Notes: generated from the letters alone by a model not told the origin. 64,000 bases of DNA from Candidatus Woesearchaeota archaeon (GCA_964452525.1 CAYVLZ010000005.1:6979-70978), one strand, 5' to 3'. Shown: positions 34,141 through 57,496, numbered from the stretch's first letter. Made by a program: numbers and translations.

Positions 34141-34896
34141 ATGAGTAAAAGAGGTCAGGTTACTGCTTTTATATTAGTTGGTATTGTTGTTTTAGCTATA
34201 TTGGGTTTTGTTTTTTATGCTAGAGGTTATTTTTCTAGAATTTCTATTGGTGGAGAATCCGGACAGAGGTATGTTAATTCTCAGTTGGAATCTATTACTG
34301 AATATTTAGATGATTGCGTTAATGAGGTTGTAGAAGATGATTTAAAATTGTTAATAGATAATGCTGGTTTTTTTCAATTGACAAGCTATTATATTATTTA
34401 TGAAGGCGGAGAAGTTAATTATTTGATTTATGAAATAGATGGAGAAAAAGTTAATGGAATGAATTTAAAGAGTTATATTGAAGATCAGATTTCTGATCAT
34501 GTTAAGAATAAATTAGTTAATGAATGTACTTTGAAAGAATATGAAGATCAGTTTACCTTGAATAGAGGAAATATAAATGTAGATACCTTAATTGTTGATG
34601 AAAAGATATTGGTGGTACTAGATTATCCTGTTACAGTTGTCAGGGGAGATGTTAGAGGAGAGATAAGAGAGGTTGAAGTTGATATAGATACAGATTTTGG
34701 AAAGATTTATGATGCGGTTACTGATATTGTAAATGGTGAAATGGAGAATGGAGACTTTGATAAAAATAGTTACGAATTAAGTCATAGAGATATTGTTATA
34801 AGAAAAGATAACCTTTATTTATCTGATGCTGTTTATAGTATTACTACTACCGAAGATGGAGAAGATGAGTTTGTGATATTCGCGGTTAGAAGATGA
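34141..34896 (+). CDS. Class III signal peptide (prepilin-like) protein 1
   Basis: MSKRGQVTAFILVGIVVLAILGFVFYA: K-R-G|Q followed by a 20-residue hydrophobic helix. Confidence 0.55.
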   Translation: MSKRGQVTAFILVGIVVLAILGFVFYARGYFSRISIGGESGQRYVNSQLESITEYLDDCVNEVVEDDLKLLIDNAGFFQLTSYYIIYEGGEVNYLIYEIDGEKVNGMNLKSYIEDQISDHVKNKLVNECTLKEYEDQFTLNRGNINVDTLIVDEKILVVLDYPVTVVRGDVRGEIREVEVDIDTDFGKIYDAVTDIVNGEMENGDFDKNSYELSHRDIVIRKDNLYLSDAVYSITTTEDGEDEFVIFAVRR

Positions 34897-36605
34897 AAAA
34901 AAAGAGTTTGATATTAATTTTTGTGTTTTTTGTTAGTTTGTTAACTATTTCTGTTGATAAGGTAAATGCGGCTAGCGTTTGTTGTGAAAAAAGTAACGGA
35001 GATTACTGTGTATTTACTGATATTGGTGCATGTGATACTGCTTATAGTAGCAATCTTCAGAGAAATTATGGTTTTTCACAGTTTTCTTGCTCATCTGTTA
35101 ATTATTGCCAACAAGTTTGTTGTATAGATACTGGTGGAGTTTGTTCCGAGGGTATGACTGAAGTACAGTGTTTAGATCAGGGGGGAACTGTTAGAAGTGA
35201 AGGTTGTGACAATTATTTAGAATGTCAGGTTGGAAGTTGTGTTATTGGTGGGCAATGTAGCACCGGAGTAACGAATAGGGAATGTAGATTAAATGCTGAT
35301 AAATTTAATGTTACTTATATTTTTGATCCCAATATTAATGATTTGGATGAATGTAGGGATAAGTATTCTACAGAAGAGGGTTGCTGTATTACTGAAAACG
35401 GTTGTGTAAGAACAACTTCTGCCGTATGTGAAGGTGATTTTAAAGCTGGAAAATTGTGTAGTAATACGGATTTCGTTGGGTTATGTACTAATCAAAAAGA
35501 GTTCGAGAGAAGATGTGGACCTGATGGTGAAGATGTTTATTGGTACGATTCTGAAGGGCAGTTAGAGAATATTGTCGGCGTTCCTTATGATGGAAATATT
35601 AGGACGAAGCAACAGTCTATGGGGGTTGTTGGTGATTGTGATTATGTTGCTGGGAATACTTGTGGGATAAATGAAAGGGGTGATTATTCTTGTGTAACTA
35701 TAGATTGTGTATCGGGAAATAAATTTAGCATTCCAAGGCCAATTCCAAGTACTGGAGAGGTGTTGAATATAGAAGTTGATATAAGTAATGATCTTTTAGG
35801 TGGAAAAAATATTAGGAAAAATGGAGAAAGCTGGTGTTTTATGAGTAGTTATAATTGGGATCAAACAAGTATGGATAGAGGTTACTATCTTGGTGACCAG
35901 TCTTTGGATAGTACTGGATTGGTTCATCAAAAATATTCGGCTGGATCTAGGCATTATATTATGAGTTGTAATCTTGGAAGAGTTGAGCCGGAATTTTGTA
36001 GTGCTTTTAGAGAAACGGTTTGTAAAGAAAACACGGTTTCAGGACAAACTTCTGCCAAATGTGTTGAGAATGAGGCTGATAAATGTAGAAGTATAACAAG
36101 TGATAGTGTTTGTAAGAATGAAGATAATCGGGAGTTTTGTGTTTTGAATACGGGAGGTATTAATGAATGTTGGCCTAGACCAGAATATGCCCTTGGTTTT
36201 GAGTTTTGGTTAGATTCTAATGTTAATAGTCAAAATGAAAGACAATGTCAAAGTAAATGTGGCAAGGGCGTAGATGTTTGTGATGATGATGAGTGTTGGA
36301 GTTTGGGAGATTGTACTATTGAAGATAGGGGCATGTTTGGTGGAGGTGGAAGTGCTTTGGCTGGTTGTGCTGTTGGAGCTGGTATCGGAGGTTTTGGAGC
36401 CCATATTCCTGTGGTTGGCGGACAGTTTGAATCTGGATTATTGAGATTGAGAGAGATATTTGGGTTGGTTCCAGATTTGGTAGGCCCTCCAGCACCCTCT
36501 TCTCCTCTTAGAGAAGATGTAGAAATCACTTGTAATACTGATGATGATTGTAATGAAGGAGAGAAATGTTTGTATCAGTTTGGAGGATGTGTTAAAGTAA
36601 GTTAG
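34893..36605 (+). CDS. Large cysteine-rich secreted protein (about 60 Cys; Gly-rich hydrophobic segment near the C-terminus)
   Basis: Sec-type signal MKKKSLILIFVFFVSLLTISVDKVNA; CC/CxxC-dense throughout; GGGGSALAGCAVGAGIGGFGAHIPVVGG Gly-zipper-like segment. Confidence 0.55.
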   Translation: MKKKSLILIFVFFVSLLTISVDKVNAASVCCEKSNGDYCVFTDIGACDTAYSSNLQRNYGFSQFSCSSVNYCQQVCCIDTGGVCSEGMTEVQCLDQGGTVRSEGCDNYLECQVGSCVIGGQCSTGVTNRECRLNADKFNVTYIFDPNINDLDECRDKYSTEEGCCITENGCVRTTSAVCEGDFKAGKLCSNTDFVGLCTNQKEFERRCGPDGEDVYWYDSEGQLENIVGVPYDGNIRTKQQSMGVVGDCDYVAGNTCGINERGDYSCVTIDCVSGNKFSIPRPIPSTGEVLNIEVDISNDLLGGKNIRKNGESWCFMSSYNWDQTSMDRGYYLGDQSLDSTGLVHQKYSAGSRHYIMSCNLGRVEPEFCSAFRETVCKENTVSGQTSAKCVENEADKCRSITSDSVCKNEDNREFCVLNTGGINECWPRPEYALGFEFWLDSNVNSQNERQCQSKCGKGVDVCDDDECWSLGDCTIEDRGMFGGGGSALAGCAVGAGIGGFGAHIPVVGGQFESGLLRLREIFGLVPDLVGPPAPSSPLREDVEITCNTDDDCNEGEKCLYQFGGCVKVS

Positions 36606-36607
36606 AA

Positions 36608-38227
36608 ATGAATAAATCAAAGAAGACTTGGATGAAGCATGTTGTTGTTTTGGGAGTAGTTATGCTTTTGTTGATTCCTTCTGCTTTTGCTATCTGGAAT
36701 TATGTTATTGGATGTGGCGTTGGTGCTGTAGTTGGTCTTTTTGTCGGGGGCATTGGAGTAAATTGTTATGATTATCAATGGACTCCTGATATGGATAAGA
36801 GTAAAGATAATTATCAGTGTACTTTATGTAATAATTTTAATGAGTTTGGTTTAGATGAAGATTTGACTTCTTATTTTGAGCCTTGTACTGAGTATAGATG
36901 TAAGAGTATAGGTAAGTTATGTGAGTTTAAAGAGTTTGAAGAGGAGGAAGGAGCTGGTATCTGTGTAAGAAAAGATTGTAGTAAAGAATTTGATGCACCT
37001 AAAATTACCAATTGTGAGGTCAGGGATCCCGATACTACAAATAAATATAATGTAGCACAGACTGAAAATGGTTGTAAAATTCTAGATCCTATACCAGAGT
37101 TTGATGGTGCTGCTATTATGTTAAATATAAGCGAGGCTGGCCAGTGTAGGTTTAGTACTGTTCCTGATTTTACAGAAACTAATAGTGTTTGGTTTGGCAG
37201 TCCTAATTTTGATACAGCACATTTCTTTTTACTAAGTGTTTATGATGCCAATGAAACGGTTATTCAAGAATGTAATTCTGGAGATTGTAATTTATATGTT
37301 AAATGTGGTGATGTTTGTGATAATACAATGGGTAGTAGTTATGCTATTAGTTTCAATATAAAAGAAGGTCCTGATTTAGAATCTCCCAGGATTGTTGATA
37401 CTTTAGTTGAGAGTGGTGCTATGGTACCTGCTGGTATTGAAAATATAGAATTTAGTATGAGTGTTTTTGATCATAGCAATATTGAAAGTTGTAAATGGGC
37501 AACTGATGAATTTGAAGAATATGAAGATATTAAGAATACCTTTGATTGTAAGAATGATTTTGGCAATGTAGATGTTGTAGCTAATTTTCTTGAAGAAGGT
37601 ATATTTTGTGAAACTACTTTAACTGGATTAGAGGATGACGAAGATAATATATTTTACTTTAGTTGTAGAGACGATTCTGAACAGAAAAATACCTTAAAAC
37701 CTTATGTAGAGTTTATATTGAAAGGAACTACTCCCTTAAATATTACTAATTCTCATATGCCAGAAGGCACCCTTTATAGTTTGAATTATACCGTTACTGC
37801 TGTAACTAATAGGGATGCTAATTGTTATTATAAGATCAATAATAGAGACAGGGAAGAGTTTAATAATACTGGATTGACTTCACATAGCGCTGAGGTTAAA
37901 TTTGATCCAGGACAGGTTAATTTAGAAATTTTATGTCATGATATTGCTGGAAATGAAGATAGTGTTACAGGTACATTTAGAGCGGAAGAAGATACTAAAC
38001 CACCCACGTTGGTAAGGTTGTATTCTGATGCAAGTTATTTAACAGTTGTTTTAGATGAAGAAGCTAAATGTGAGTATTCTGATGAGCAATTTATATTTGA
38101 AGATGGTACGGTTATGGTTCCTGCAGATTATAGTAAAGAGCATAGAGCAGCAATAGGACAGGATGTTTATTACATCAAATGCAGGGATGTTTATGAGAAT
38201 GAGTTAAGCTTCACAGTTTATCCTTAA
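36608..38227 (+). CDS. Large cysteine-rich secreted/membrane-anchored protein with N-terminal glycine-zipper TM
   Basis: HVVVLGVVMLLLIPSAFAIWNYVIGCGVGAVVGLFVGGIGV N-terminus; about 35 Cys; acidic. Confidence 0.5.
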   Translation: MNKSKKTWMKHVVVLGVVMLLLIPSAFAIWNYVIGCGVGAVVGLFVGGIGVNCYDYQWTPDMDKSKDNYQCTLCNNFNEFGLDEDLTSYFEPCTEYRCKSIGKLCEFKEFEEEEGAGICVRKDCSKEFDAPKITNCEVRDPDTTNKYNVAQTENGCKILDPIPEFDGAAIMLNISEAGQCRFSTVPDFTETNSVWFGSPNFDTAHFFLLSVYDANETVIQECNSGDCNLYVKCGDVCDNTMGSSYAISFNIKEGPDLESPRIVDTLVESGAMVPAGIENIEFSMSVFDHSNIESCKWATDEFEEYEDIKNTFDCKNDFGNVDVVANFLEEGIFCETTLTGLEDDEDNIFYFSCRDDSEQKNTLKPYVEFILKGTTPLNITNSHMPEGTLYSLNYTVTAVTNRDANCYYKINNRDREEFNNTGLTSHSAEVKFDPGQVNLEILCHDIAGNEDSVTGTFRAEEDTKPPTLVRLYSDASYLTVVLDEEAKCEYSDEQFIFEDGTVMVPADYSKEHRAAIGQDVYYIKCRDVYENELSFTVYP

Positions 38228-40586: not shown

Positions 40587-40691
40587 ATAATCTATGATTT
40601 AGAACCATATTTAGACGACAGAATCTCAATAATAGTCACTACTAGGAACGTGGATGCTCAAAATATAATAAAATTCGGAGGTGTAAACCAC

Positions 40692-42899
40692 ATGAAAAAG
40701 ATGATTAAAAGTATTGCGGCTCTGGGAGCTGGAGTTGCTATGCTTGGAGCAACATTAGGTGGAGCTTTAGCAGTGAATGATTTAGGAAATTTACCTTCTC
40801 CATTTGTACAAGATAGTGCATTGGTTGATACTGCTATAGTTCTAGGAGAAACAGGTAACGACGCAGCAGCAAGAGACGATATAAATAATTACCTTGGCGG
40901 TTTAGCAACTGCTGGAGGTGTGACTGTTACTGGTGGAGAGGATAAGGATATTCCTCTTAACAACCATTTAGCTAATCCTACATATGGTTGGACGAGTCCA
41001 GTACAGGATCAAGATGTAGATGCTCTACAAGATACAGTGATTGATGTAGATATAGGAGATGTTTCTAATACTTACGATGTACATGATCAGGTGTACTTTG
41101 GAACAGGTATTAGAGTTGAAACTGGTTTGACTATAGGTACTCCAGATGACGATTTTGGTAGTGAACCATTTTTAAAGGTAAACAAAGATTCTGTAAAGTA
41201 TTCTTATGTATTTGATGACTCCATAAAACAAGATAACTATTTTGCGAATACAAGTACAGACGATTCGATAATAATAAGTTTCTTGGGTAATGAACTGGAA
41301 ATTATCGGTTCTGATGCCGCTAATAAATTTACTGCACTGGTTGGTGAAAAAGTTACACTGCAAGTAGATGAAACTTATACGGATCCTGATACTGGTGCTG
41401 TAGTTACATTGGTTGATGTAGCCAGCGGAGGAGCTGTATTTGTAGATGTTGATGGAGAGACGGATACAATCTCAAGTGGACAGTCAAAGCAAATAGGCGG
41501 TACTAAGATTAAAAATCAGAACCAGTTCTATACTGCTGATAGAGAAGATAGAAGAGCAACCTTGGTTATTGGTTCTGATACAACTAAGACGTATACTAGT
41601 GGTGACTATTATATTGGGTCTTCATCAAGTCCTGTTTGTGATGAAACAGATACTAGTGACCCTGACTGTTGGAAATGGGAAATTTCTGGATTGAACACTG
41701 CAACACCTACAATAAACATAACATTTGCAACTACTTTGGATAGTTCGGATGAAGTTATAAGAAAAGGTGACGCATTGAGATTACCAGATGACTTCATTGT
41801 TGTATCTTTGACTGATTATGTTATAAATGATTGGTTAGAGTATGAGTTTGAAGAATGTACAGAGGAACTACACAATAGTACTGGTGGAACTGGTATTGTT
41901 GCTGGTGAAGGGCCTGCAGGAACAACAAGTGAAAAGGCATTGTGCGTTAAAGCACTTGGTGGTACGGATGATGGATTTAAAGTTGGAACAACAGAGACAG
42001 ACGATGTTTTAATATTTGCTAATAACACTTGGGAAGCTGGAACTGGTGATGCTAGAGGTCCTTGGGTATATTATAAGGATCCTAATGATGTTGGTTCTGG
42101 TTGGAAATACAGAGCAAATGATACAGTAGAGCTATTCAACCACAAAGCAGGTAGTGTACTGTACAACCATTCCTTGACGAAAGTTACCATGCAATTTGAT
42201 GACACTAAATTGACAGCTGTAGTGACTACTGATAATGTTACGGATGAAGCTGGTTCCATTGGAGTGGGTTTCCAAATAGATGGTACTGCTGCTAATGACA
42301 TTAACTTTACAGCGAATGTAACGGGTAATGGTATTGAATGGTTGGGTGCTGTTGATGGAGATGCTAAGTCTAAGGATCTTACAGCAAACAATACAGAGAT
42401 AGGTACTTGGGAAGATGATACCATGACATATGATGGTATAAAAATATTTAACCCAGACTCTTATGGAGACTCTGATAAATGGAGAGTAGCTATCCCTGGT
42501 GATGTTGGAACTGACTTTAGAATGACTGTAACTGTATCTGGCGAGTCTACAACAGGAACTACTTCAGCGGCTTTGATGACTGCAGATGATGTAAGTACAC
42601 CATCTGACTACAACTTAATCCTTGTAGGTGGACCATGTGTCAATAGCTTAACTGCTTCATTCTTAGGAGTAGCAGCTAACTCTTGTGGTGATTCCTCTGG
42701 ATTTAACCCAGGAGAAGGTTATGTTGAGCTTATGGACAATGGCAATAAAGTAGCGATGATTGTAGCAGGATGGGAAGTAGACGACACTAGAAGAGCTGCT
42801 AAGGTTGTAGCTAACCCAGGTAGTTTTGACTTGGCAGGCAAGTCTTCAGTAACTGTAACAGGAACATCAACAAGCTTGAACGACATAACAGTTGTTTAA
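40692..42899 (+). CDS. Candidate S-layer (major surface) glycoprotein
   Basis: Signal peptide MKKMIKSIAALGAGVAMLGATLGGALA; 735 aa, acidic, Thr/Gly/Asp/Val-rich with few Cys; multiple sequons (NTST, NHSL, NVTD, NFTA, NVTG, NTEI); long 5' leader and T-rich terminator. Confidence 0.55.
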   Translation: MKKMIKSIAALGAGVAMLGATLGGALAVNDLGNLPSPFVQDSALVDTAIVLGETGNDAAARDDINNYLGGLATAGGVTVTGGEDKDIPLNNHLANPTYGWTSPVQDQDVDALQDTVIDVDIGDVSNTYDVHDQVYFGTGIRVETGLTIGTPDDDFGSEPFLKVNKDSVKYSYVFDDSIKQDNYFANTSTDDSIIISFLGNELEIIGSDAANKFTALVGEKVTLQVDETYTDPDTGAVVTLVDVASGGAVFVDVDGETDTISSGQSKQIGGTKIKNQNQFYTADREDRRATLVIGSDTTKTYTSGDYYIGSSSSPVCDETDTSDPDCWKWEISGLNTATPTINITFATTLDSSDEVIRKGDALRLPDDFIVVSLTDYVINDWLEYEFEECTEELHNSTGGTGIVAGEGPAGTTSEKALCVKALGGTDDGFKVGTTETDDVLIFANNTWEAGTGDARGPWVYYKDPNDVGSGWKYRANDTVELFNHKAGSVLYNHSLTKVTMQFDDTKLTAVVTTDNVTDEAGSIGVGFQIDGTAANDINFTANVTGNGIEWLGAVDGDAKSKDLTANNTEIGTWEDDTMTYDGIKIFNPDSYGDSDKWRVAIPGDVGTDFRMTVTVSGESTTGTTSAALMTADDVSTPSDYNLILVGGPCVNSLTASFLGVAANSCGDSSGFNPGEGYVELMDNGNKVAMIVAGWEVDDTRRAAKVVANPGSFDLAGKSSVTVTGTSTSLNDITVV

Positions 42900-46195: not shown

Positions 46196-47845
46196 TTATT
46201 TTTTCTTTTTGCTCATGAAGTAGTAGGCTACTCCAATTACTACTACAGCTATTATTAATATCCATAGCCATATCAAGCTTGTTCCTTCTTCTATTATTTC
46301 GCCTTCTCCTTCACCTTCTTGTCCTGTTGCCATTCCTGTAAATGTTATGTCTGCTTCTCCGTTAGATACGCTGTTTAGAGTTATGCTTAGGTCTTCTGTA
46401 CCGTCCTCATTTACATCTAATTCTCTTGTTTCTCCAGTATTGATTGTTATTTCTTGTGGATTTGGTGATGCTACTGTTAGAGTTACATAACTTTCTCCTA
46501 TTGTCTCAATTTTGAAAGCATGTGTTTCTCCTGCTAATACAAATCTACCACCATCTCCTTGCATTACTTTTTGTGATTTTCCTGTTGTACTTATGGTTCC
46601 TAGATCATGTGTTTCTCCTGTTACTTCATTAAGCAGGTCTTCTACATCTTCCGAGATATCTTCTCCTTCACCTTCACCACCGCTTCCTCCTCCGGTGGTT
46701 TCTGAAGCTGATACATCAAAGTTGTATGTTGAACTATCTGTTGAGTATCCTACTTCGTCTGTTACAGTACATTTTACATCATATTCTCCAATATCATCTA
46801 TTGTTGTTCCGTTGAAGTTTACGGAGCTTGATCCGTTGAAAGTTGTTGTATCGTCTGATGGGTATGTTAGTGTCCATGTGTAGTCTATGCTTGACATATC
46901 ATCGCTACCTTGACAACTATAAGTTATTCCTGATGATGATAATGCGTCTACGGTTGTGTCTGATGGTGCTGTAACTGTTGGTGTTGATGGTGCTGTAGCA
47001 TCTATTGTGAAGTTAAATCCTTGATCGTTTACACCATCTACTATCGAAATATTTCTAGCACTTGTATCATTTACTACTACTAAGAAACTGAAGTTTGTAC
47101 CGTGATCGAACTGTGATGGTGCGAAGGTTGCATTGAATTGTTTTATTGCTCCTGTTGCTGTAGATAGATTAGTTAGATTTACATAGTCATGATGTATACT
47201 ACTGAAGTTTGCAGTTTCTGTTACGTTCCAATATAATTTCGGGGTCACACCAAAAGCAACAGTTTCATTTATGACTACTGTTACGGTAATAGTAGCATTC
47301 TTTAGATATCTTGTACCTTTTAAGTCAGAATCGTTCCAATGTGTACTAACTCCATCACTTACATTTATTTCTATTACTGTGGGCGGACTATTGTCGATGA
47401 TGATGTCATCTAATGTTGTACTGTTTACTGCTACTCTTTGTGCGCTGTAGTTTGTTGCATATACCGTGACATTAATGGTATAATTACCATCTGGGATTAA
47501 TTTTGTGCTGTTCGTATTAAGCATAGAGACAACCCCTTCAGCTCCATCATTGGGTGTAGCAGATTCATTTATCAGTTCTATTCCAGAATCTGTCCATGCT
47601 CCTGCTGTACCATTATCTCTATAGAAGATTGTTGCATTGTAAACAAGATTTGCAGCTCCTGATGCATAAATTTCGGTAAAGTTTCCCGTTACAGATGTAT
47701 TGAAAACATAGGTACCGTTAATAGTACTTGGAGAAGATGGATCTACCCAATTTACTGTTTTAATCTCCGATGCCATAACAAATATTGCTAGAAGCAATAA
47801 GCATATCGTTGGTATTATTAAAGATATATTTGACTTTTTAATCAT
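46196..47845 (-). CDS. Heavily N-glycosylation-sequon-rich surface protein with N-terminal signal/anchor and C-terminal TM
   Basis: More than 25 N-x-S/T sequons (NGTY, NTSV, NFTE, NYTI, NVTV, NYSA, NSTT, NVSD, NATI, NETV, NVTE, NFSS, NLTN, NLST, NFSF, NDTS, NFTI and others). GGGSGGEGEGED linker. C-terminal LIWLWILIIAVVVIGVAYYF plus KKKK. Confidence 0.55.
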   Translation of the reverse strand: MIKKSNISLIIPTICLLLLAIFVMASEIKTVNWVDPSSPSTINGTYVFNTSVTGNFTEIYASGAANLVYNATIFYRDNGTAGAWTDSGIELINESATPNDGAEGVVSMLNTNSTKLIPDGNYTINVTVYATNYSAQRVAVNSTTLDDIIIDNSPPTVIEINVSDGVSTHWNDSDLKGTRYLKNATITVTVVINETVAFGVTPKLYWNVTETANFSSIHHDYVNLTNLSTATGAIKQFNATFAPSQFDHGTNFSFLVVVNDTSARNISIVDGVNDQGFNFTIDATAPSTPTVTAPSDTTVDALSSSGITYSCQGSDDMSSIDYTWTLTYPSDDTTTFNGSSSVNFNGTTIDDIGEYDVKCTVTDEVGYSTDSSTYNFDVSASETTGGGSGGEGEGEDISEDVEDLLNEVTGETHDLGTISTTGKSQKVMQGDGGRFVLAGETHAFKIETIGESYVTLTVASPNPQEITINTGETRELDVNEDGTEDLSITLNSVSNGEADITFTGMATGQEGEGEGEIIEEGTSLIWLWILIIAVVVIGVAYYFMSKKKK

Positions 47846-49448: not shown

Positions 49449-50942
49449 TCACTTTATTTTTATTGTTTCTTTAACAAAACTTTTTGCATAATTTAAGTTG
49501 GTTTTGTTGTCAGAATATATCGTAAATAGTTTGTGCCCTTTATTTACCTTATCTTTTGTTTTTACGTATAGATATATTCCGGCTTCTTTGTCCTGAGGAG
49601 ATCCGGCAATTCTTGCAATCTTATTTATTTTTTTTATATCTATTGAACTAATGATTCCGGTTTTGCTCGCTTTGACTGTATGGGAAAATTTTCCTATTCT
49701 TAATTGTGAGGGTAGGATGTTGGGGTTTCCTTCTTGTGCTTTAATTATTTCCTTCATCCTTTTGTAGGCAAGACCTGAATCTAAAATACTTTTAACAAGA
49801 GTTTCTGATTTTTTTATCCCAACCATTTTTAAGATTATGCTAGCCATCTTGATGGATTTTCTTTCTAAGTCTTTTGGCGCTTTTTCATCTCTTTTTAATA
49901 TGTAAAGTACGTCTCTGGCTTCTAGGTTCGGACCTATTCCGTTTCCTATTGGTTGTGAACCATCTGTTAGTATTACTTTTATCTTTATACCTAATCTTCT
50001 CCCTATTCTTTTGAATTTTAATTTTAGTCTCTTGCCTTCTCTTATTGATTTTATTTTAGAATCTTTTCCGATTGGTAAATCTATTAGTACATGGGTTGCA
50101 TTAACTGCAGCTTTTTTTGCAAGTATACTGCTAATTAACATTGCTTCTGGGTCTAAGCTTAGAGAATGTCTTACTTTTATGAGTTTGTCATCTGCGCTTG
50201 CTAATTCTATTGCACCTCCCCATGCTATAAAGGCGTTTGTTTTTTTGATTATTTTTTTTAATTTTTTAATCGGCAAGTTTACTTTTGCTAAACTTTCCAT
50301 GGTGTCTGCGGTCCCGCTCGCAGAAGTTATGCTTCTTGAACTTGTTTTGGGAATGGTTAGATTGGCTGCAGCTAGAATTGGTACTACTATCATAGTTGTT
50401 CTATTTCCTGGAATTCCTCCAGAACAATGTTTGTCTACTATTATCTTTCTATTAATCTTTATTTGAGAGCCATTTTTAACTATGGCTTTTGTTAGGTAGG
50501 TAATTTCTCTTTCATCTAGCCCATGATTATAACAAGCAGAAACAAAATATGCTAGTTCTATTTCTGTTAGTTCGTTTGCTACTAGATCTTTCACTATAAT
50601 ATTGATCTCTTTTTCATTTAATTTTTTACCTTCAAGTTTTTTCTTTATCAATTCTATAGATTCTGGTATTGTTACTGGGAAGATTTTTACTTTTTGTTTA
50701 TCTTTAACTTTTAAAATATCTAGAACTTCTTCAAACAATCCTATTTTTCCTTTTTTAATGCCCTTGTCACTCTCTGATATATCTACTGCTGCTATTATTT
50801 GTTTTTTTCCTTTTTTTATCTTTATTCTATCCAATGCTTGGAGATCTAGTTTTTCTGCATCTTTATAGTTGAGTATTACTATTAACGGACCTCCAGAAGA
50901 GATATCTACGTCTTTAACTTTTAATAACATTTTTTTCCTCAT
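49449..50942 (-). CDS. deoA: AMP phosphorylase (thymidine-phosphorylase family, archaeal DeoA type)
   Basis: N-terminal extension characteristic of AMPpase, then the nucleoside-phosphorylase-II core HCSGGIPGNRTTMIVVPILAAANLTIPKTSSRSITSASGTADTMESLA; 497 aa. Confidence 0.8.
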   Translation of the reverse strand: MRKKMLLKVKDVDISSGGPLIVILNYKDAEKLDLQALDRIKIKKGKKQIIAAVDISESDKGIKKGKIGLFEEVLDILKVKDKQKVKIFPVTIPESIELIKKKLEGKKLNEKEINIIVKDLVANELTEIELAYFVSACYNHGLDEREITYLTKAIVKNGSQIKINRKIIVDKHCSGGIPGNRTTMIVVPILAAANLTIPKTSSRSITSASGTADTMESLAKVNLPIKKLKKIIKKTNAFIAWGGAIELASADDKLIKVRHSLSLDPEAMLISSILAKKAAVNATHVLIDLPIGKDSKIKSIREGKRLKLKFKRIGRRLGIKIKVILTDGSQPIGNGIGPNLEARDVLYILKRDEKAPKDLERKSIKMASIILKMVGIKKSETLVKSILDSGLAYKRMKEIIKAQEGNPNILPSQLRIGKFSHTVKASKTGIISSIDIKKINKIARIAGSPQDKEAGIYLYVKTKDKVNKGHKLFTIYSDNKTNLNYAKSFVKETIKIK

Positions 50943-51997: not shown

Positions 51998-52342
51998 GTG
52001 TTTACTATGGTTCCTACTATAGTTGGTTTTGTCGAGAAAGTTAGAATAGCAGATAAGCAAATAATGGCTAGAGTAGATACTGGAGCTACAATTAGTTCGA
52101 TAAACAAGACTTTGGTGGATAGCCTTGGTCTAGGGCCTGTTGTTAGAACTACTAAGGTTGCTAGTGCTCAAGGAAAGCAGGTTAGGCCGATTGTCATAGT
52201 TGATTTAGAAATTGCAGGGAAGAATCTTAAAGCAGAGTTTAGTGTAGCTAATAGGGACCACATGGAATATCAGATATTGATAGGAAGGAACATCCTGAAG
52301 CATGGTTTTTTGATTGATCCTAGGAAGGAATTTAAAAAATGA
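51998..52342 (+). CDS. Retropepsin-like aspartic protease (RimK-associated type)
   Basis: ARVDTGATISSIN contains the D-T/S-G-A catalytic motif; 114 aa; ATGA overlap with the downstream ATP-grasp gene. Confidence 0.65.
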   Translation: MFTMVPTIVGFVEKVRIADKQIMARVDTGATISSINKTLVDSLGLGPVVRTTKVASAQGKQVRPIVIVDLEIAGKNLKAEFSVANRDHMEYQILIGRNILKHGFLIDPRKEFKK

Positions 52343-53412
52343 AAGTGGCGCTGATTGGTTTGGGAGGAGATACTACTAAGTCAATAATCAGAGAATGTAT
52401 CGGATACTTCAAGAAGGCAGATTTTTTAGATATAAGGAAATTAAAGTTACATATAAGTTCTGATAGCGTTGAGGTATTTTATGATGATAATAATCTTGAG
52501 GATTATGATTGCGTTTATTGTAGAGGAAGTCATAAATATGCCTTGTTGTTGACGGGGATTACGGAGGCTTTAAATAGCAAATGTTATATGCCTGTCTCTA
52601 GTAACGCTTTTTTAGCTTGCCATAATAAATTTTTAACTTCTATGGAACTTCAAAAGGCCAATATTCTTATGCCTAGGACTTTCTTGGCATCTAATAGTAA
52701 TGCTGCTAAGAAGATTTTAGAAGAGATCCACTACCCTGTTATTATTAAAATACCTAGTGGAACTCATGGAAAAGGTGTAATGTTTGCTGATAGTAGGAGT
52801 AGTGCTAAGAGCGTCATAGACACCTTAGAAGTTTTTAATCAATCCTATATCATACAGGAATATGTTGAAACTGATGCTACAGATATAAGGGCGGTAGTTC
52901 TTGGAGATAGGGTTATTTCTGCTATGAAAAGAAAAGCTGCTAAAGATGAATTAAGAGCTAATCTCCACATGGGAGGAATGGGAATTGCTACCAATGTTAG
53001 TGAGGAAGTAGAGAGATTGGCTGTAAGGTCTGCAAAGGCCTTAGGTCTTGATATTTGCGCTGTTGATCTACTAGAGGGAGCTAAAACAAGCGTTTTAGAA
53101 GTTAATGTTAGTCCAGGTCTTAGGGGGATAAGTGAAGTTACTAAAAGAAATATAGCTAGAGATGTTGCTAAATTTTTATATGATAAAACTTGTAATTTTA
53201 AAAACATTAAAAAGAAAGAAGGATATGATGACATAATTAATGGTTTAGATAAGAAGATTAACAATCAGTTTCTGTCTAACCTAGATATAAAATTAGGTAG
53301 GATAAGATTGCCGGGAGCAGCCACTAAGTTAAGTGGTTTAACTGAGCATGACGAAGTTATGATTAAGGCTGATAGAGGAAAGATAATTATAACTAAGTCA
53401 GATGTTAAATGA
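52339..53412 (+). CDS. RimK-family ATP-grasp ligase (alpha-L-glutamate ligase-like) with about 90-aa C-terminal extension
   Basis: ATP-grasp core YPVIIKIPSGTHGKGVMFA...IIQEYVE...DIRAVVLGDRVISAMKRKA...LHMGG...AVDLLEG...VLEVNVSPGL. Confidence 0.7.
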   Translation: MKVALIGLGGDTTKSIIRECIGYFKKADFLDIRKLKLHISSDSVEVFYDDNNLEDYDCVYCRGSHKYALLLTGITEALNSKCYMPVSSNAFLACHNKFLTSMELQKANILMPRTFLASNSNAAKKILEEIHYPVIIKIPSGTHGKGVMFADSRSSAKSVIDTLEVFNQSYIIQEYVETDATDIRAVVLGDRVISAMKRKAAKDELRANLHMGGMGIATNVSEEVERLAVRSAKALGLDICAVDLLEGAKTSVLEVNVSPGLRGISEVTKRNIARDVAKFLYDKTCNFKNIKKKEGYDDIINGLDKKINNQFLSNLDIKLGRIRLPGAATKLSGLTEHDEVMIKADRGKIIITKSDVK

Positions 53413-53448: not shown

Positions 53449-54138
53449 ATGAAAGTTGCAATTTTGTTTAGCGGAGGAAAAGATTCTGTTAATGCTGTAG
53501 CTTTAGCTAAAGAAAAAGGATGGGATATTGATTATTTGCTTAGTGTTAAGCCTTCTAGAACAGATTGTTATTTGTTTCATTACGCTACTGTTGAATATAC
53601 TAAAGAGTTAGCTGAAATATTTGGTTTAAAGCATATATTAACTGGATGTGATGTAGCTGATCCTGAGAAGGAAGCAGAAATTATTAAAAATATTGTCAAA
53701 GATAATCCAGTTGATGCTGTTGTACTTGGAGGTGTTGGACTTCAGGAAACTCAGATCAATAGCATTAGAAAAGCTTTGAGTTCTTTAGGAGTAGAAGTTT
53801 TTGCTAGTCATGCTGAAGAAGATTCTTTAAAGTTGATGAATGAGATGATAAAGAATGGTTATGAGATTGTGATTACCGAGATAGCTTCTGATGGATTAAC
53901 TGAAGAACATATAGGTTTAAAGTTAGATGCTGAGAACTTCCCAAAATTTGTTGAATTGTCTAGAAAATATGGCTTTGAGGTTTTGGGAGAAGGTGGATAC
54001 TATAACACCTTGGTTGTAGATGGTCCTATTTTTGATAAAAGATTAGAAATTATTGACTCTGAGAAAGTTATGGAATCTGAAAATGTTGGATATCTAAAAG
54101 TGAATCAAGTTAAGATGTCTAAAAAAGTCATTCAATAG
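53449..54138 (+). CDS. Diphthine-ammonia ligase-like PP-loop ATPase (Dph6/MJ0570 family)
   Basis: VAILFSGGKDS PP-loop; about 229 aa alpha/beta ATP-pyrophosphatase domain. Confidence 0.6.
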   Translation: MKVAILFSGGKDSVNAVALAKEKGWDIDYLLSVKPSRTDCYLFHYATVEYTKELAEIFGLKHILTGCDVADPEKEAEIIKNIVKDNPVDAVVLGGVGLQETQINSIRKALSSLGVEVFASHAEEDSLKLMNEMIKNGYEIVITEIASDGLTEEHIGLKLDAENFPKFVELSRKYGFEVLGEGGYYNTLVVDGPIFDKRLEIIDSEKVMESENVGYLKVNQVKMSKKVIQ

Positions 54139-54685
54139 GGTCCACTTCATATAATTCTTGTCCATACTCTACGGGTTCTCCATTTTCAACTTCTACTTTT
54201 TTAATTTTTGCCTTATTGACTTTTTCTGATACTCTGTAATCTTCTGGTTCTATTTCTTCGTAGAAACAAGTTCCCAGGTTTACGTTTCTTCTTTCCTCCG
54301 GTTTTACTAATTTTACTTCGTTTGGTATTTTGAGAGCTTCTATTATTCCTATTGTGTCTCCAATCGATACTTCTTCTCCTTCTTCTATAGATATTCCAAG
54401 TATTTTATCAAATCTATAAAAGGTTCCTACTGAGGGGGATAAAATAAAATATCTATTTACTTTTCCTTCTAGATTTTCTTCATCACTCTTTATTGTTAAT
54501 TTTTCATTTTTTTTGTCTTTAACCATTGTTATTTTTAAGTTTATTTTGGATAGTGCCGGGATTATTTTTCCTTTATAATCTAGATACACCTCATGACCTT
54601 TTTCTTTTTGTTCTTCTAATAATTCTAGTAATTTGTTTAAATAATGCTTTCCAGATAGATATTCTTTTATAAGTTCAAAGCCCAT
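54128..54685 (-). CDS. Protein with C-terminal biotinyl/lipoyl-like hybrid-barrel domain
   Basis: SPSVGTFYRF...EEGEEVSIGDTIGIIEALKIPNEVK resembles biotin/lipoyl attachment domains (GD..IEAMK) but lacks the AMKM biotinylation motif. Confidence 0.45.
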   Translation of the reverse strand: MGFELIKEYLSGKHYLNKLLELLEEQKEKGHEVYLDYKGKIIPALSKINLKITMVKDKKNEKLTIKSDEENLEGKVNRYFILSPSVGTFYRFDKILGISIEEGEEVSIGDTIGIIEALKIPNEVKLVKPEERRNVNLGTCFYEEIEPEDYRVSEKVNKAKIKKVEVENGEPVEYGQELYEVDPIE

Positions 54686-54729: not shown

Positions 54730-55992
54730 TTATAATCCCCATTTTTTAATTGCTGTTTTTAGTTCTGGATGCGACTGTGCGTACTTCTTTAGAGTTATGT
54801 TCTGTAGTGATGCGTCTAGAGCTTGTTTAATTGCTTTTGCACCTTCTTTTGGCCCTCTGGGATGTCCGAATAAACCCCCCCCAAATTGGCATATTATGTC
54901 GTTTCCAAGGTATTTCATAAGTTTGGGTATTTGTGTTGGATATAAACCTCCGCTGCAAATTGCGAAAGTTGGTTTGATGTGATGCCAATTTTCAGCTAGA
55001 GTGTGGTTTGCTTCATCTTCCTTTATTATTTTCTTTTCTATTTCTTCTCCTATGTGCTGAACCTCTCTTTTACTTCCGGACATTTTTCCTATTATTGTGC
55101 CTATGTGGAGTTGGTCTATCCCTAATAATCTTGAAACATCAGCTATTACTAACATTGATACTCCGTGTTTGGGGTTTCTGGTTATTGCTGCGTGCCCGCT
55201 TCTATGGCCATGAATTATTAATTCTAGATTTTCATCCCTTAATGTTTGTAGAGATGACCAACCAGAAGTTATTATGTCTATCATGCAAAATCTTCCACCA
55301 TTTTCTTCTACAAATTTAGCTCTTTTAATCATTTCTTTAGTTTCTGCTGTTATGTTTGCTACGTAACCTTTTTTTTCTCCCGTTTCCTTTTCTACTTTTT
55401 TTCTCATCTTGAGAGTTAGTTTTACTCTTCTCTTAAATTGGTTAAAATTTAGGTTTCCTAGATTTTCGTCTTCTTTTATCATATCCATTCCGTTTTTCCA
55501 GAGAATGTAAGCGTTTTTAGCCTGTTCTTGAGAAGATAGCCCTACTTTTGGTTTTATTATGCTTCCAATTAGTGGACGTTCATGTACCTTTAGAATTTTT
55601 CTTATTCCAGGAATTCCGTATCTAGGTCCTTTAAAGCTTTTAATTATTTTATAAGGCCATTGTATATCTTCTAATCTCAGATTTTTAATTGCTTTCATAC
55701 CAAAAATGTTCCCTGCAATGCTTGAAAGTATTTGCGGCATATTTCCTTGTTCAAATAGTTGAGAAGGGTAAGCTATTTTTGTCCAGTTGCCTTTTATAGA
55801 GAATACCTTTGCTCCTATTTTTCTTATACTGGGTTTCATGGTTGATATTTTTGTCCAGGTTCCTATAGAAGATTCAGAAGCAATTTTCTCTGAAGCACTC
55901 TTAACACTTAACCCTTTTACGGGTTCTATGTAAAATGAACAGATTAGATCGTTTTGGGTTGGCTTATAATTTAGATTTACATATTTTAACAT
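54730..55992 (-). CDS. rbcL: Ribulose-1,5-bisphosphate carboxylase large subunit, form III (archaeal)
   Basis: SESSIGTWTKISTM (ESSTGTWT motif), GMDMIKEDENL (GLDFTKDDE-type), CQFGGGLFGHPRGPKEGAKA (C-terminal GG..GHP); 420 aa. Confidence 0.85.
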   Translation of the reverse strand: MLKYVNLNYKPTQNDLICSFYIEPVKGLSVKSASEKIASESSIGTWTKISTMKPSIRKIGAKVFSIKGNWTKIAYPSQLFEQGNMPQILSSIAGNIFGMKAIKNLRLEDIQWPYKIIKSFKGPRYGIPGIRKILKVHERPLIGSIIKPKVGLSSQEQAKNAYILWKNGMDMIKEDENLGNLNFNQFKRRVKLTLKMRKKVEKETGEKKGYVANITAETKEMIKRAKFVEENGGRFCMIDIITSGWSSLQTLRDENLELIIHGHRSGHAAITRNPKHGVSMLVIADVSRLLGIDQLHIGTIIGKMSGSKREVQHIGEEIEKKIIKEDEANHTLAENWHHIKPTFAICSGGLYPTQIPKLMKYLGNDIICQFGGGLFGHPRGPKEGAKAIKQALDASLQNITLKKYAQSHPELKTAIKKWGL

Positions 55993-57431
55993 TTTAGCAC
56001 CTTAGGAAGATCTTTTAAAGTTTTAATTATAAAATCTGGATTTTTCTTTTTTAAATTTTTCTTTGGAGTATTTCCACTAAGTACCGCAACAGTTCTTATT
56101 CCAGCTTTTTTTCCAGCTATTATATCATAGATTGAATCGCCTACCATGTAATCAGCTCTGATGTGTAGAAGCTTTTCTGCCCTGAATATCTCATCGGGAG
56201 CTGGCTTTGGTTCTTTTACGTCATCGTAACCGACTATTACATCAAATAAATTTATACTTATTCCTGCTGTGCTTAACAGTATTTCTATTTGCCTATGGGT
56301 GCAGTTTGATACTATAGCAAGTTTGTATTTTTTTCTTAATCTTTTTAGAGTAGACACTACTCCTTTGAAGGGTTTGATGTATTTTTTTGTCTCTTTTATT
56401 AGTATTTTATGCCTATCTTTTCTTATTTTTTCTATTTTTTTCTTCGATAACTTCGGATACAGTTTTTTTATAATCTTTGTTCCTAACATGCCAAACATAC
56501 TTTTAAGTTTTTCTGGATCTGTTTCTGGTAAGTTGTTTTTTTTGAAAGCTTTGTTGTAAGATAGAATATGTGATTTATTTGCATCTAATAAAGTATGGTC
56601 CATATCTAGACATATTAATTCTTTTATGGATTTGTATTCTTTTTTGACTTTTTTAATAAACTCTTTTGGCTTTAGGATTCCTAGTTCAGAGATTATGCCT
56701 GTTATGTGTTTTGGATTTATTATTTCAAAAGCAGGGTTTTTAATTTTTATTTTTCTGGGTGCATTTTTCCAAATCTCTTTGAAATTTCTTTGTTCTATGT
56801 CTACTCTTCTTGGCGAGAATTTCCAAGAGTCTGTTACTATGTAAACGGGAATTTTATGGTGATAAGCTATCTCAGCAAACATTCCCGAGCCTATTTTATT
56901 TATTACGGAGCCATCTGATAGTATAGCATCACAACCTAAAAGAACTAAATTTACTTTTTTCATTGTTTGGCTTTTTTTTAGCGCCACTCCTGCAGCAGAG
57001 TCCACCACTTGTGTTACATCTATTCCTAGTTTAGACAGCTCTTTTGCTGTTTTTCTTCCTTGATATAATGGACGCGTTTCTGTATTAAAAACTTTAAAAT
57101 TCTTACCTTGTTTTTTAGCCTCTTTTAATACTGAAATAACTGTAGAGCTGTGACAATGTGTAAATATTGTTGAATTGTTCTTTATTTTTCTGGTACCGAA
57201 TTTGTTTATTTTTTCTAGTGCTTCATTAAAGTGGTTCAGGGTGGTTTCAATTCCGTAGTCTTCTGCATAATCAAGAGCATTTTTTAGCATAGGTTCTGTG
57301 GGCCTTAAGCTTAGAAGCTTCTTTTTTGAAATCCCCTTTAACTTTAAACATTTAACGGCAGCTTTGGCTATATTCTGTGCACCCTGAATTCTTAAGGTTT
57401 TAATGTCTTTATACAACTTAGAAGTTTGCAT
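55986..57431 (-). CDS. Fusion protein: ribose-1,5-bisphosphate isomerase (eIF2B-like, e2b2) N-domain plus HAD-IA phosphatase C-domain
   Basis: N-terminal about 300 aa eIF-2B alpha/beta/delta-like (TIFTHCHSSTVISVLKEA...VLLGCDAILSDGSVINKIGSGMFAEIAYHHKIPVYIV). C-terminal about 170 aa with HAD motifs ICLDMDHTLLD (DxDxT), IVSNCT, KEPKPAPD, GDSIYDIIAGKKAG. 7-nt overlap with the rbcL start. Confidence 0.7.
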   Translation of the reverse strand: MQTSKLYKDIKTLRIQGAQNIAKAAVKCLKLKGISKKKLLSLRPTEPMLKNALDYAEDYGIETTLNHFNEALEKINKFGTRKIKNNSTIFTHCHSSTVISVLKEAKKQGKNFKVFNTETRPLYQGRKTAKELSKLGIDVTQVVDSAAGVALKKSQTMKKVNLVLLGCDAILSDGSVINKIGSGMFAEIAYHHKIPVYIVTDSWKFSPRRVDIEQRNFKEIWKNAPRKIKIKNPAFEIINPKHITGIISELGILKPKEFIKKVKKEYKSIKELICLDMDHTLLDANKSHILSYNKAFKKNNLPETDPEKLKSMFGMLGTKIIKKLYPKLSKKKIEKIRKDRHKILIKETKKYIKPFKGVVSTLKRLRKKYKLAIVSNCTHRQIEILLSTAGISINLFDVIVGYDDVKEPKPAPDEIFRAEKLLHIRADYMVGDSIYDIIAGKKAGIRTVAVLSGNTPKKNLKKKNPDFIIKTLKDLPKVLKC

Positions 57432-57496
57432 AACAGATTTCTAATTTTTCGTTATTTAAACTTTTCCAAAAATTATATAAAGTCGGTACTTACAAT

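Follow-up and report, generated by a model that had tools for sequence, protein, structure and literature searches.

Why should the gene directly upstream of a RuBisCO encode, in one polypeptide, both an isomerase of the archaeal pentose bisphosphate pathway and a phosphatase? The question is raised by a stretch of 64,000 nucleotides from Candidatus Woesearchaeota archaeon (GCA_964452525.1 CAYVLZ010000005.1:6979-70978), the whole of which we call the window and from whose first letter all positions are counted. The shunt leading from AMP and nucleosides to RuBisCO is seen as a main route by which genome-reduced DPANN archaea and bacteria of the candidate phyla radiation (CPR) turn scavenged nucleotides into energy, and to our knowledge it is always drawn with three enzymes. 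We are confident that the gene encodes a genuine two-domain protein. Its N-terminal half is a short, DPANN-type ribose 1,5-bisphosphate (R15P) isomerase, and its C-terminal half is a complete Mg-dependent phosphomonoesterase of haloacid dehalogenase (HAD) subfamily IA, of the Gph/CbbZ/PpaX type. The gene stands first in an operon, before form III RuBisCO, and is a Rosetta-stone fusion whose junction has been fused or split at least four times. Thus in Woesearchaeota and Pacearchaeota a fourth gene, for a Gph/PpaX-like HAD phosphatase, lies inside the operon and is repeatedly fused to the isomerase. The features concerned are the following.

55986..57431, minus strand: fused open reading frame (ORF) that opens the operon and joins an R15P-isomerase-like domain to a HAD-IA phosphatase domain (ORF listing, Pfam, profile scores)
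56631..57431, minus strand: short eIF2B-like R15P isomerase (e2b2) domain, residues 1-267 (TIGR00511, PDB profile, Foldseek)
55989..56630, minus strand: HAD-IA (C1-cap) phosphatase domain, residues 268-481, Gph/PpaX (COG0546-like) type (Pfam, NCBIfam, PDB profile, hhalign, Foldseek)
55986..55992, minus strand: 7-nt overlap of the fusion stop TAA (55988-55986) with the rbcL ATG (55992-55990), AAATGTTAA (ORF listing, DNA read)
54730..55992, minus strand: form III RuBisCO large subunit, 420 aa (574.6 bits on TIGR03326, which has its cut-off at 497.45; Pfam RuBisCO_large and RuBisCO_large_N)

A first-pass annotation of this DNA had described a single 481-aa ORF joining the two domains, its stop overlapping the start of a form III RuBisCO by 7 nt. 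The ORF listing and Pfam agree on the ORF, which runs uninterrupted from an ATG, and the DNA read and the TIGR03326 score bear out the overlap and the RuBisCO form. In the 481-aa protein, IF-2B (PF01008) matches residues 61-255 (8.5e-53) and HAD_2 residues 275-450 (2.9e-35). The Hydrolase and Hydrolase_like models also match the C-terminal half, and the HAD-type matches together span residues 272-475. Could an indel in an A-rich stretch, introduced in sequencing or assembly, have merged two separate genes? Homopolymer A runs do lie close to the junction, the nearest relatives are split with a 10-nt overlap, and the exact window protein is a single database member. We nevertheless find such an artefact exceedingly improbable. 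The junction as read from the DNA has no in-frame stop, and no ATG, GTG or TTG lies between the end of the isomerase and the nucleophile Asp276. The sole ATG encodes Met277, within motif I, which leaves a separate HAD no start codon that would retain the nucleophile. The database holds 27 clusters with both Pfam domains at full coverage; the 26 besides the window protein show 43-54% identity, come from independent projects (JGI, ENA, Logan, Tara) and have differing linkers. Across 19 aligned fused proteins both active sites are invariant (THCHSS with Cys93, Asp168, and the HAD motif residues). An AlphaFold2 model of the fusion, built on a 74-sequence alignment, has a mean predicted local distance difference test score (pLDDT) of 92.3 and a predicted template modelling score of 0.74, with a short, confident linker (residues 261-280, pLDDT 84-96). 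A frameshift hiding two genes, which the first-pass annotation had itself raised, was rejected on the missing HAD start codon, the 26 other fused clusters and the confidently modelled junction. Source annotations of these proteins read only 'eIF-2B subunit' or generic 'HAD hydrolase'.

The isomerase half scores 182.9 bits against TIGR00511, under the curated equivalog cut-off of 314.1; this low score accompanies an N-terminal domain that lacks some 55 aa, a trait typical of DPANN homologues. In the PDB ranking, R15P isomerase of Thermococcus kodakarensis (Tk) and Pyrococcus horikoshii (Ph) leads at 3e-41, vs 1e-25 for the aIF2B PH0440 and 1e-24 for methylthioribose 1-phosphate isomerase (M1Pi). 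Foldseek gave 5yfj/3vm6 (E 1e-24, template modelling (TM) score 0.75, 34% identity), and its top 13 matches are all R15P isomerases. The e2b2 model reaches 183 bits vs 114 bits for MtnA. Both catalytic residues are in place.

57153..57155, minus strand: Cys93 codon TGT (THCHSS), counterpart of the Tk/Ph R15P isomerase's catalytic Cys (alignment to 3a11/5yfj; invariant in the 19 fused proteins)
56928..56930, minus strand: Asp168 codon (GCDAI), equivalent to the catalytic Asp and aligned with the residue mutated in the Ph D204N structures (alignment, DNA read)

Cys93 and Asp168 align with Tk Cys133/Asp202 and Ph Cys135/Asp204, and the fused family keeps both without, or almost without, exception. 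Identification of the N-domain as aIF2B or MtnA was ruled out by the score ranking, the catalytic residues and the genomic context. The protein thus resembles the Thermococcales enzyme (TK0185, 3a11/3vm6; P. horikoshii 5yfj) in fold (root mean square deviation 2.2-2.7 Å, 34% identity), in its catalytic Cys and Asp, and in its pathway neighbours, AMP phosphorylase and form III RuBisCO, an association that relatives share. It differs in that its isomerase part is 267 aa and not 322 aa (the N-terminal helical domain being some 55 residues shorter), in falling under the TIGR00511 cut-off, and in bearing a C-terminal HAD. The first-pass annotation had set the protein against a canonical isomerase of about 320 aa with a domain added. 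The R15P-isomerase-like identity stands; the length does not, since the isomerase part is about 267 aa and stand-alone DPANN e2b2 homologues, at 265-276 aa, are just as short. From its sequence, this half is predicted to make ribulose 1,5-bisphosphate (RuBP) from the R15P released by AMP phosphorylase.

Is the C-terminal half an intact phosphatase, and of which kind? The motifs were read in the DNA, and their conservation was scored in 19 fused homologues and in 85 HAD-family members.

56592..56606, minus strand: HAD motif I, D276-M-D278-H-T280, nucleophile and general acid/base Asp (DNA read; D276, D278 and T280 invariant)
56568..56570, minus strand: His288 codon, 12 residues past the nucleophile, family-specific (alignments; 91% His)
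56298..56309, minus strand: HAD motif II, S375-N376-C-T378 (N376 100%, S375 at least 90% conserved)
56205..56207, minus strand: HAD motif III, Lys409 (KPAPD; 100% conserved)
56124..56141, minus strand: HAD motif IV, G431-D432-S-I-Y-D436 (DNA read; invariant)

All four motifs are invariant or nearly so in both sets. The earlier reading of four motifs in the HAD-IA arrangement with an intact nucleophile therefore holds, and the degeneration of the motifs that it had considered is not seen. The cap also fits: in the AlphaFold2 model, helices 285-298, 306-310, 317-324 and 330-351 lie between strands 271-275 and 369-374, a four-helix C1 cap, and TIGR01549 (HAD-SF-IA-v1) scores 39.9, over its cut-off of 23.3. 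When the HAD domain was modelled alone, pLDDT rose to 97.2, and its best Foldseek matches are putative phosphoglycolate phosphatases (PGPs) of COG0546 type (TM 0.85-0.92); most of its structural neighbours are uncharacterised proteins.

Several rankings place the domain nearer to one of the two phosphatases known beside RuBisCO than to the other. For comparison we used the CbbZ and CbbY proteins of the cbb operon of C. necator pHG1. In the PDB profile search the best match is Aquifex PGP 2yy6 (4.8e-28, 101 bits), with BT2127 (3e-13) and CbbY 4uar (5e-9, 39 bits) farther down. In hhalign the HAD family profile scores 110 (E 1e-16) with C. necator CbbZ and 77.5 (E 3e-11) with CbbY. CbbY is not in the top 50 Foldseek neighbours of the domain. 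The best NCBIfam models are PpaX (116.6 bits vs a cut-off of 218) and then the PGP models, and no MtnX or MtnC model is in the best 25 NCBIfam matches. The affinity to the phosphoglycolate-phosphatase group that the first-pass annotation had claimed is favoured by the Aquifex PGP match, by CbbZ ranking above CbbY and by the Gph-type neighbours, but the best NCBIfam model is PpaX and most structural neighbours are uncharacterised. Sequence comparison thus suggests that the HAD is nearest to the Gph/CbbZ/PpaX-type phosphatases and farther from CbbY. A CbbY orthologue, or a CbbY/beta-phosphoglucomutase-like enzyme (HAD-IA variant 3), was ruled out by the profile and structure ranking, the hinge motif alone being shared. 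This hinge follows motif I (fusion residues 283-296, window 56544-56585) and has the consensus K-x-H-x-x-A-F-N-x-A-F. It includes His288, whose spacing from the nucleophile we take to be that of His20 in beta-phosphoglucomutase. The xylulose 1,5-bisphosphate (XuBP) phosphatase CbbY (4uar; C. necator pHG1 cbbY) is alike in being a HAD-IA enzyme encoded beside RuBisCO, in clearing a RuBisCO misfire product and in its T/K-A-H-x-x-A-F-N hinge, but it is the weaker match overall. The likeness to CbbZ/Gph of bacterial cbb operons (C. necator pHG1 gph; Aquifex PGP 2yy6) lies in the HAD-IA fold with C1 cap, the best overall profile and structure match, and a gene in an operon with RuBisCO. There are differences here too: identity is only 25-31%, the scores stay under equivalog cut-offs, the hinge after motif I is another one, and the window HAD is fused or adjacent to the isomerase of a pathway other than the CBB (Calvin-Benson-Bassham) cycle, in an archaeon of mostly low-oxygen habitats.

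How general is the arrangement? The isomerase half has its nearest relatives (65-67% identity) in split forms. In loci L007, L008 and L009 an e2b2 gene (269 aa; L007 2691-3500) and a HAD gene (210 aa; L007 3491-4123) share a 10-nt stop/start overlap, AGATGGATATAA, and are followed by a flavin-reductase-like gene and then RuBisCO. A search with the HAD alone returned about 100 clusters, stand-alone orthologues of 203-225 aa at 40-59% identity. We then scanned the HAD family profile against one genome per species and mapped the window proteins onto the 80 loci returned. One is fused; in 25 e2b2 ends no more than 200 nt upstream on the same strand, in 13 it lies 0.3-4.2 kb upstream, and RuBisCO lies within 1 kb downstream of the HAD in 22 of the 80. 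Many species have the genes in a same-strand, operonic arrangement, with overlaps or gaps of less than 50 nt on both sides of the HAD. In 4 of 5 contexts, fused orthologues have SpoIIM divergent upstream and RuBisCO 0.5-1.4 kb downstream. The first-pass annotation had asked whether related genomes carry the fusion or an adjacent separate HAD gene, and both occur. The fusion itself stands, but with 27 fused clusters it is not singular, and the general state is a split e2b2-HAD(-RuBisCO) cluster. Restricting the flank analysis to 48 DPANN-type loci with adequate flanks gave the following counts.

e2b2 fused or adjacent to the HAD, 23 loci: RuBisCO within 1 kb in 14, at 1-10 kb in 2, none within 10 kb in 7
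e2b2 near the HAD, 6 loci: RuBisCO within 1 kb in 1, at 1-10 kb in 4, none within 10 kb in 1
e2b2 absent, 19 loci: RuBisCO within 1 kb in 0, at 1-10 kb in 0, none within 10 kb in 19

RuBisCO, where present in these loci, is nearly always directly downstream of the HAD. Woesearchaeota and Pacearchaeota otherwise carry this HAD, as a rule, as a gene of its own between e2b2 and RuBisCO, and in this sense the fusion is a Rosetta stone.

The e2b2-HAD junction has been fused or split at least four times independently. In the single-domain trees and the tree of the concatenated pair, fused forms occupy about five positions, and on the concatenated tree parsimony needs 4-5 changes between fused and split in 300 of 300 bootstraps. 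A large marine fused clade is monophyletic (100%) and, diverse as it is, keeps the fused state throughout; it never includes the window protein, whose nearest neighbours are the split L007/L008. In the tree, solo HADs are scattered among linked ones. Fusion is an uncommon state, with 1 fused representative among the 150 matches listed from 1.84 billion 50%-identity representatives.

What, then, does the phosphatase do? We tentatively favour a housekeeping or repair phosphatase for the RuBisCO step, acting most likely on 2-phosphoglycolate (2-PG). The first-pass annotation had put forward both 2-PG removal and the trimming of a sugar phosphate, and either has a published precedent; the sequence speaks for the former, and the nested gene associations and the fusion partner lend weight to the latter. 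Oxygenation by RuBisCO would yield 2-PG, which the HAD would hydrolyse, possibly along with further inhibitory by-products. Co-expression with the isomerase and RuBisCO would clear the toxic by-product in step with pathway flux, and fusion to the isomerase would mirror gene adjacency and 1:1 co-expression, not substrate channelling. We favour this role because the whole domain is similar to the Gph group and because cbbZ is a precedent for a phosphatase in a RuBisCO operon, gph (cbbZ) being located in the pHG1 cbb operon. In addition, competition with the co-transcribed RuBisCO would be expected of an enzyme destroying RuBP but not of one that clears a by-product. Even in the anaerobe T. kodakarensis a 2-PG phosphatase is needed, because under microaerobic conditions oxygenation is catalysed by the RuBisCO belonging to its pentose bisphosphate pathway (PMC11032457). 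Genomes free of RuBisCO commonly have PGP genes too (0.68 vs 0.81 copies; PMC7895386), so the solo HAD loci fit a 2-PG role.

A number of observations weigh against it. The HAD meets no equivalog cut-off, the PGP models of the Gph/CbbZ family (TIGR01449 / PRK13222) scoring 97.6 vs 225, 77.1 vs 180 and 68.8 vs 327; its identity to CbbZ is only 25%; and its K-x-H-x-x-A-F-N hinge is common to CbbY (TAHLQAFNAAF), not CbbZ. TK1734, the 2-PG phosphatase already known from archaea, is a member of another HAD subfamily (PMC11032457). In the 48 well-flanked loci RuBisCO is never beside the HAD without e2b2, 7 of the 23 e2b2-HAD pairs have no RuBisCO within 10 kb, and the tightest adjacency and the fusion partner of the HAD is the isomerase, not RuBisCO. 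The HAD stands alone in a slot between SpoIIM and diphthamide synthase (DPH6) in 19 of the 48 (about 40%), and its occurrence there with neither e2b2 nor RuBisCO nearby calls for caution against any RuBisCO-specific role. The functionally unrelated SpoIIM, STT3 and diphthamide synthase genes are syntenic with the whole block, and part of the HAD-e2b2 association may be inherited gene order.

The pairing with the isomerase invites other readings. It is possible, though doubtful, that in DPANN the e2b2-HAD pair serves as a two-step module dedicated to a branch of the archaeal pentose bisphosphate pathway not yet described, with the HAD acting on a pentose bisphosphate. The reactions would be RuBP to ribulose 5-phosphate (Ru5P) or ribulose 1-phosphate (Ru1P), removal of XuBP, or conversion of phosphoribosyl pyrophosphate (PRPP) or R15P. 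Nucleotide ribose could then be routed with or without RuBisCO, and the AMP pathway would have in the HAD its missing fourth enzyme. The persistence of the pair without an adjacent RuBisCO and the recurrence of fusion would both be accounted for. The main rival to the 2-PG role, though we find it rather unlikely, is that the HAD is a pentose-bisphosphate phosphatase working on the product or substrate of the isomerase (RuBP to Ru1P or Ru5P, or R15P to a ribose monophosphate), the fusion being a two-step enzyme that diverts nucleotide ribose from carboxylation into a non-carboxylating or overflow branch as in haloarchaea. There is a haloarchaeal precedent: a HAD (Halxa_2271 / VNG_1202C) is a strict RuBP phosphatase encoded with a Ru1P aldolase, and in some haloarchaea the RuBP phosphatase shares one operon with R15P isomerase (PMC9700705). 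TK2301 of T. kodakarensis prefers RuBP although the organism has RuBisCO (PMC11032457). The nested associations point the same way (e2b2-HAD without RuBisCO in 7 of 23, HAD-RuBisCO without e2b2 never), as do the repeated fusion to the isomerase, the CbbY-like hinge, and the fact that fused HADs often act on the product of their partner, MtlD being an example. An enzyme encoded and co-transcribed directly upstream of RuBisCO would, however, compete with it for RuBP, and the haloarchaeal phosphatase route and RuBisCO mostly occur in different species (PMC9700705). Compared by description only, the haloarchaeal RuBP phosphatase has a FucA-type Ru1P aldolase as partner and occurs in species lacking RuBisCO, while here the gene lies directly upstream of RuBisCO with no aldolase found nearby. 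No FucA-like aldolase matched in the window plus 92 loci (1.29 Mb), a result that is weak on account of the probe sequence used. A PLSDB tblastn with the isomerase domain led to two haloarchaeal plasmids with plain aIF2B paralogues only and no HAD or FucA neighbours. The whole-domain profile is nearer to Gph/CbbZ than to CbbY, and the 19 loci that keep the HAD with no e2b2 nearby also count against an enzyme tied to the isomerase.

Those 19 loci, with the HAD alone between SpoIIM and diphthamide synthase, suit instead a general housekeeping phosphatase or pyrophosphatase that merely sits in a conserved slot beside e2b2, the fusions being near-neutral accidents eased by the overlapping stop and start. 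The interspersion of solo and linked HADs in the tree, the equally good preservation of the unrelated neighbours STT3, SpoIIM and DPH6, the best NCBIfam model being the pyrophosphatase PpaX, and the rarity of the fused form agree with this. We regard it as unlikely given the operonic layout with tight spacing on both sides in many species, the at least four independent fusion or fission events with the fused state retained in a diverse marine clade, and the position of RuBisCO, nearly always directly downstream of the HAD when present. The PpaX match (116.6 bits) and BT2127 (3e-13) could also be taken to mean that the HAD feeds the isomerase. It would remove the terminal phosphate of PRPP by P-O-P cleavage, as PpaX and BT2127 do, and so make R15P, an entry to the shunt independent of AMP phosphorylase; supply of the partner's substrate would explain the fusion. 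Finn and Tabita are said to have proposed in 2004 a route from PRPP through R15P to RuBP for methanogens. We think this improbable: an AMP phosphorylase is already encoded in the window, PRPP hydrolysis is energetically wasteful, PRPP synthase is not linked (one match in 92 loci), no support was found in the literature searched, and the solo HAD loci would be left unexplained.

The substrate matters for how these cells live with RuBisCO. The choice lies between protection of mostly anaerobic symbionts from oxygenase or misfire products of RuBisCO, as in the 2-PG role that we favour, and a non-carboxylating bypass as in haloarchaea. With the fusion protein, one readily expressed construct is at hand for this question, and the HAD may prove to be an ordinary phosphoglycolate phosphatase.

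The domain fusion is new and the fourth pathway gene previously unremarked; the pathway itself is known, and we do not propose another type of system. Methionine salvage brings the same three superfamilies together, where MtnA is an eIF2B-like isomerase, MtnW a RuBisCO-like enolase and MtnX/MtnC a HAD phosphatase, all handling a pentose-derived phosphate ester. Here, by contrast, the RuBisCO is a bona fide form III enzyme (rubisco_III model 574.6 bits vs 170-208 for MtnW models) and the isomerase is nearer to e2b2 than to MtnA. Joining of neighbouring genes from the AMP/RuBisCO pathway, read as evidence of functional coupling, has been described in CPR bacteria with form III-c RuBisCO. There e2b2 is joined to RuBisCO, not to a HAD, and no phosphatase or HAD gene is mentioned in the clusters (Jaffe et al. 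2019, PMC6389311). A comparative study of Woesearchaeota lists only deoA, R15Pi and rbcL. The literature searched yielded no account of e2b2 fused to a HAD, nor of HAD genes within the RuBisCO clusters of DPANN archaea.

Around the fusion gene and RuBisCO the window holds further elements of the pathway and of its presumed expression.

57432..57496, no strand: 65-bp divergent intergenic region, A/T-rich, between the fusion gene and a SpoIIM-like gene (putative, from the DNA read)
55998..56003, minus strand: AAGGTG, a candidate Shine-Dalgarno-like motif 5 nt 5' of the rbcL ATG and within the last part of the fusion ORF (from the DNA read)
49449..50942, minus strand: AMP phosphorylase (DeoA-like), the R15P-making step, about 3.8 kb beyond rbcL (TIGR03327 530.4 bits, cut-off 535; PRK04350 561 bits, cut-off 434)

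A TATA-like TTTAAATA some 20-28 nt 5' of the fusion ATG is the presumed operon promoter, judged from its sequence. The divergent SpoIIM neighbour is also kept in relatives. Other neighbours in the window are an STT3/AglB-type oligosaccharyltransferase, diphthamide synthase and an S-layer protein; together with the names borne by homologues they point to a DPANN archaeon of Woesearchaeota/Pacearchaeota type. On the other side, 44 nt 3' of the rbcL stop, a 185-aa ORF (54128..54685, minus strand) carries a biotin/lipoyl-attachment domain (Pfam 6e-08) whose motif EALKIPNEV resembles the biotinylation site EAMKLMNEI of biotin carboxyl carrier protein. It has no homologue in any of the 92 related loci and may be a lineage-specific third gene of the operon.

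In the related loci, the space between HAD and RuBisCO varies. A recurrent extra gene there was ruled out, the intervening genes being lineage-specific only. One sub-lineage has a Flavin_Reduct gene (156 aa; L007 4123-4593, L008 7433-7903, L021 10635-11102, and L009 too), and outside it the gap holds unrelated small Cys-rich membrane proteins. A B12-binding radical-SAM gene beside RuBisCO contains an intein (Intein_splicing, LAGLIDADG) in L007 (5960-8494); in L008 (9298-10838) and L009 it is called as two ORFs and has no intein.

Some members of the HAD family carry bacterial labels. Spread of the module to CPR bacteria was rejected as an explanation for the contigs labelled Woesebacteria, Patescibacteria and Bdellovibrio (L023, L094, L030), which are probably misbinned DPANN. 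Archaeal markers (STT3/AglB, SpoIIM and diphthamide synthase) stand in DPANN synteny on L023 and L094, while L030 and L044 have a member of the same HAD family; misbinning is probable for the whole set (L023, L030, L044 and L094, deposited as Woesebacteria, Bdellovibrio, 'bacterium' and Patescibacteria). Bathyarchaeia HADs near a RuBisCO-family gene (L082, L084) were ruled out as orthologues at 32-34% identity and in another context. Their clusters (L082 3534-12333, L084 4870-12248) comprise a GH42 beta-galactosidase, a RuBisCO-family protein (about 452 aa), an FGGY sugar kinase, the HAD, a cyclase and a DeoC/LacD aldolase. Such a gene set resembles a sugar pathway with a RuBisCO-like protein, not the AMP shunt.

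Farther off in the window, a small ORF (51998..52342) overlaps a RimK-type ATP-grasp ligase (52339..53412, plus strand). The counterpart pair in L004 (11188-12590) adjoins the RuBisCO block, and Pfam matches on that counterpart mark the small ORF as retropepsin/RimB-like. Three large ORFs of 570, 539 and 549 aa (34893..38227, plus strand; 46196..47845, minus strand) have no Pfam match at E of 0.001 or below and adjoin an S-layer-like protein at 40650..42899.

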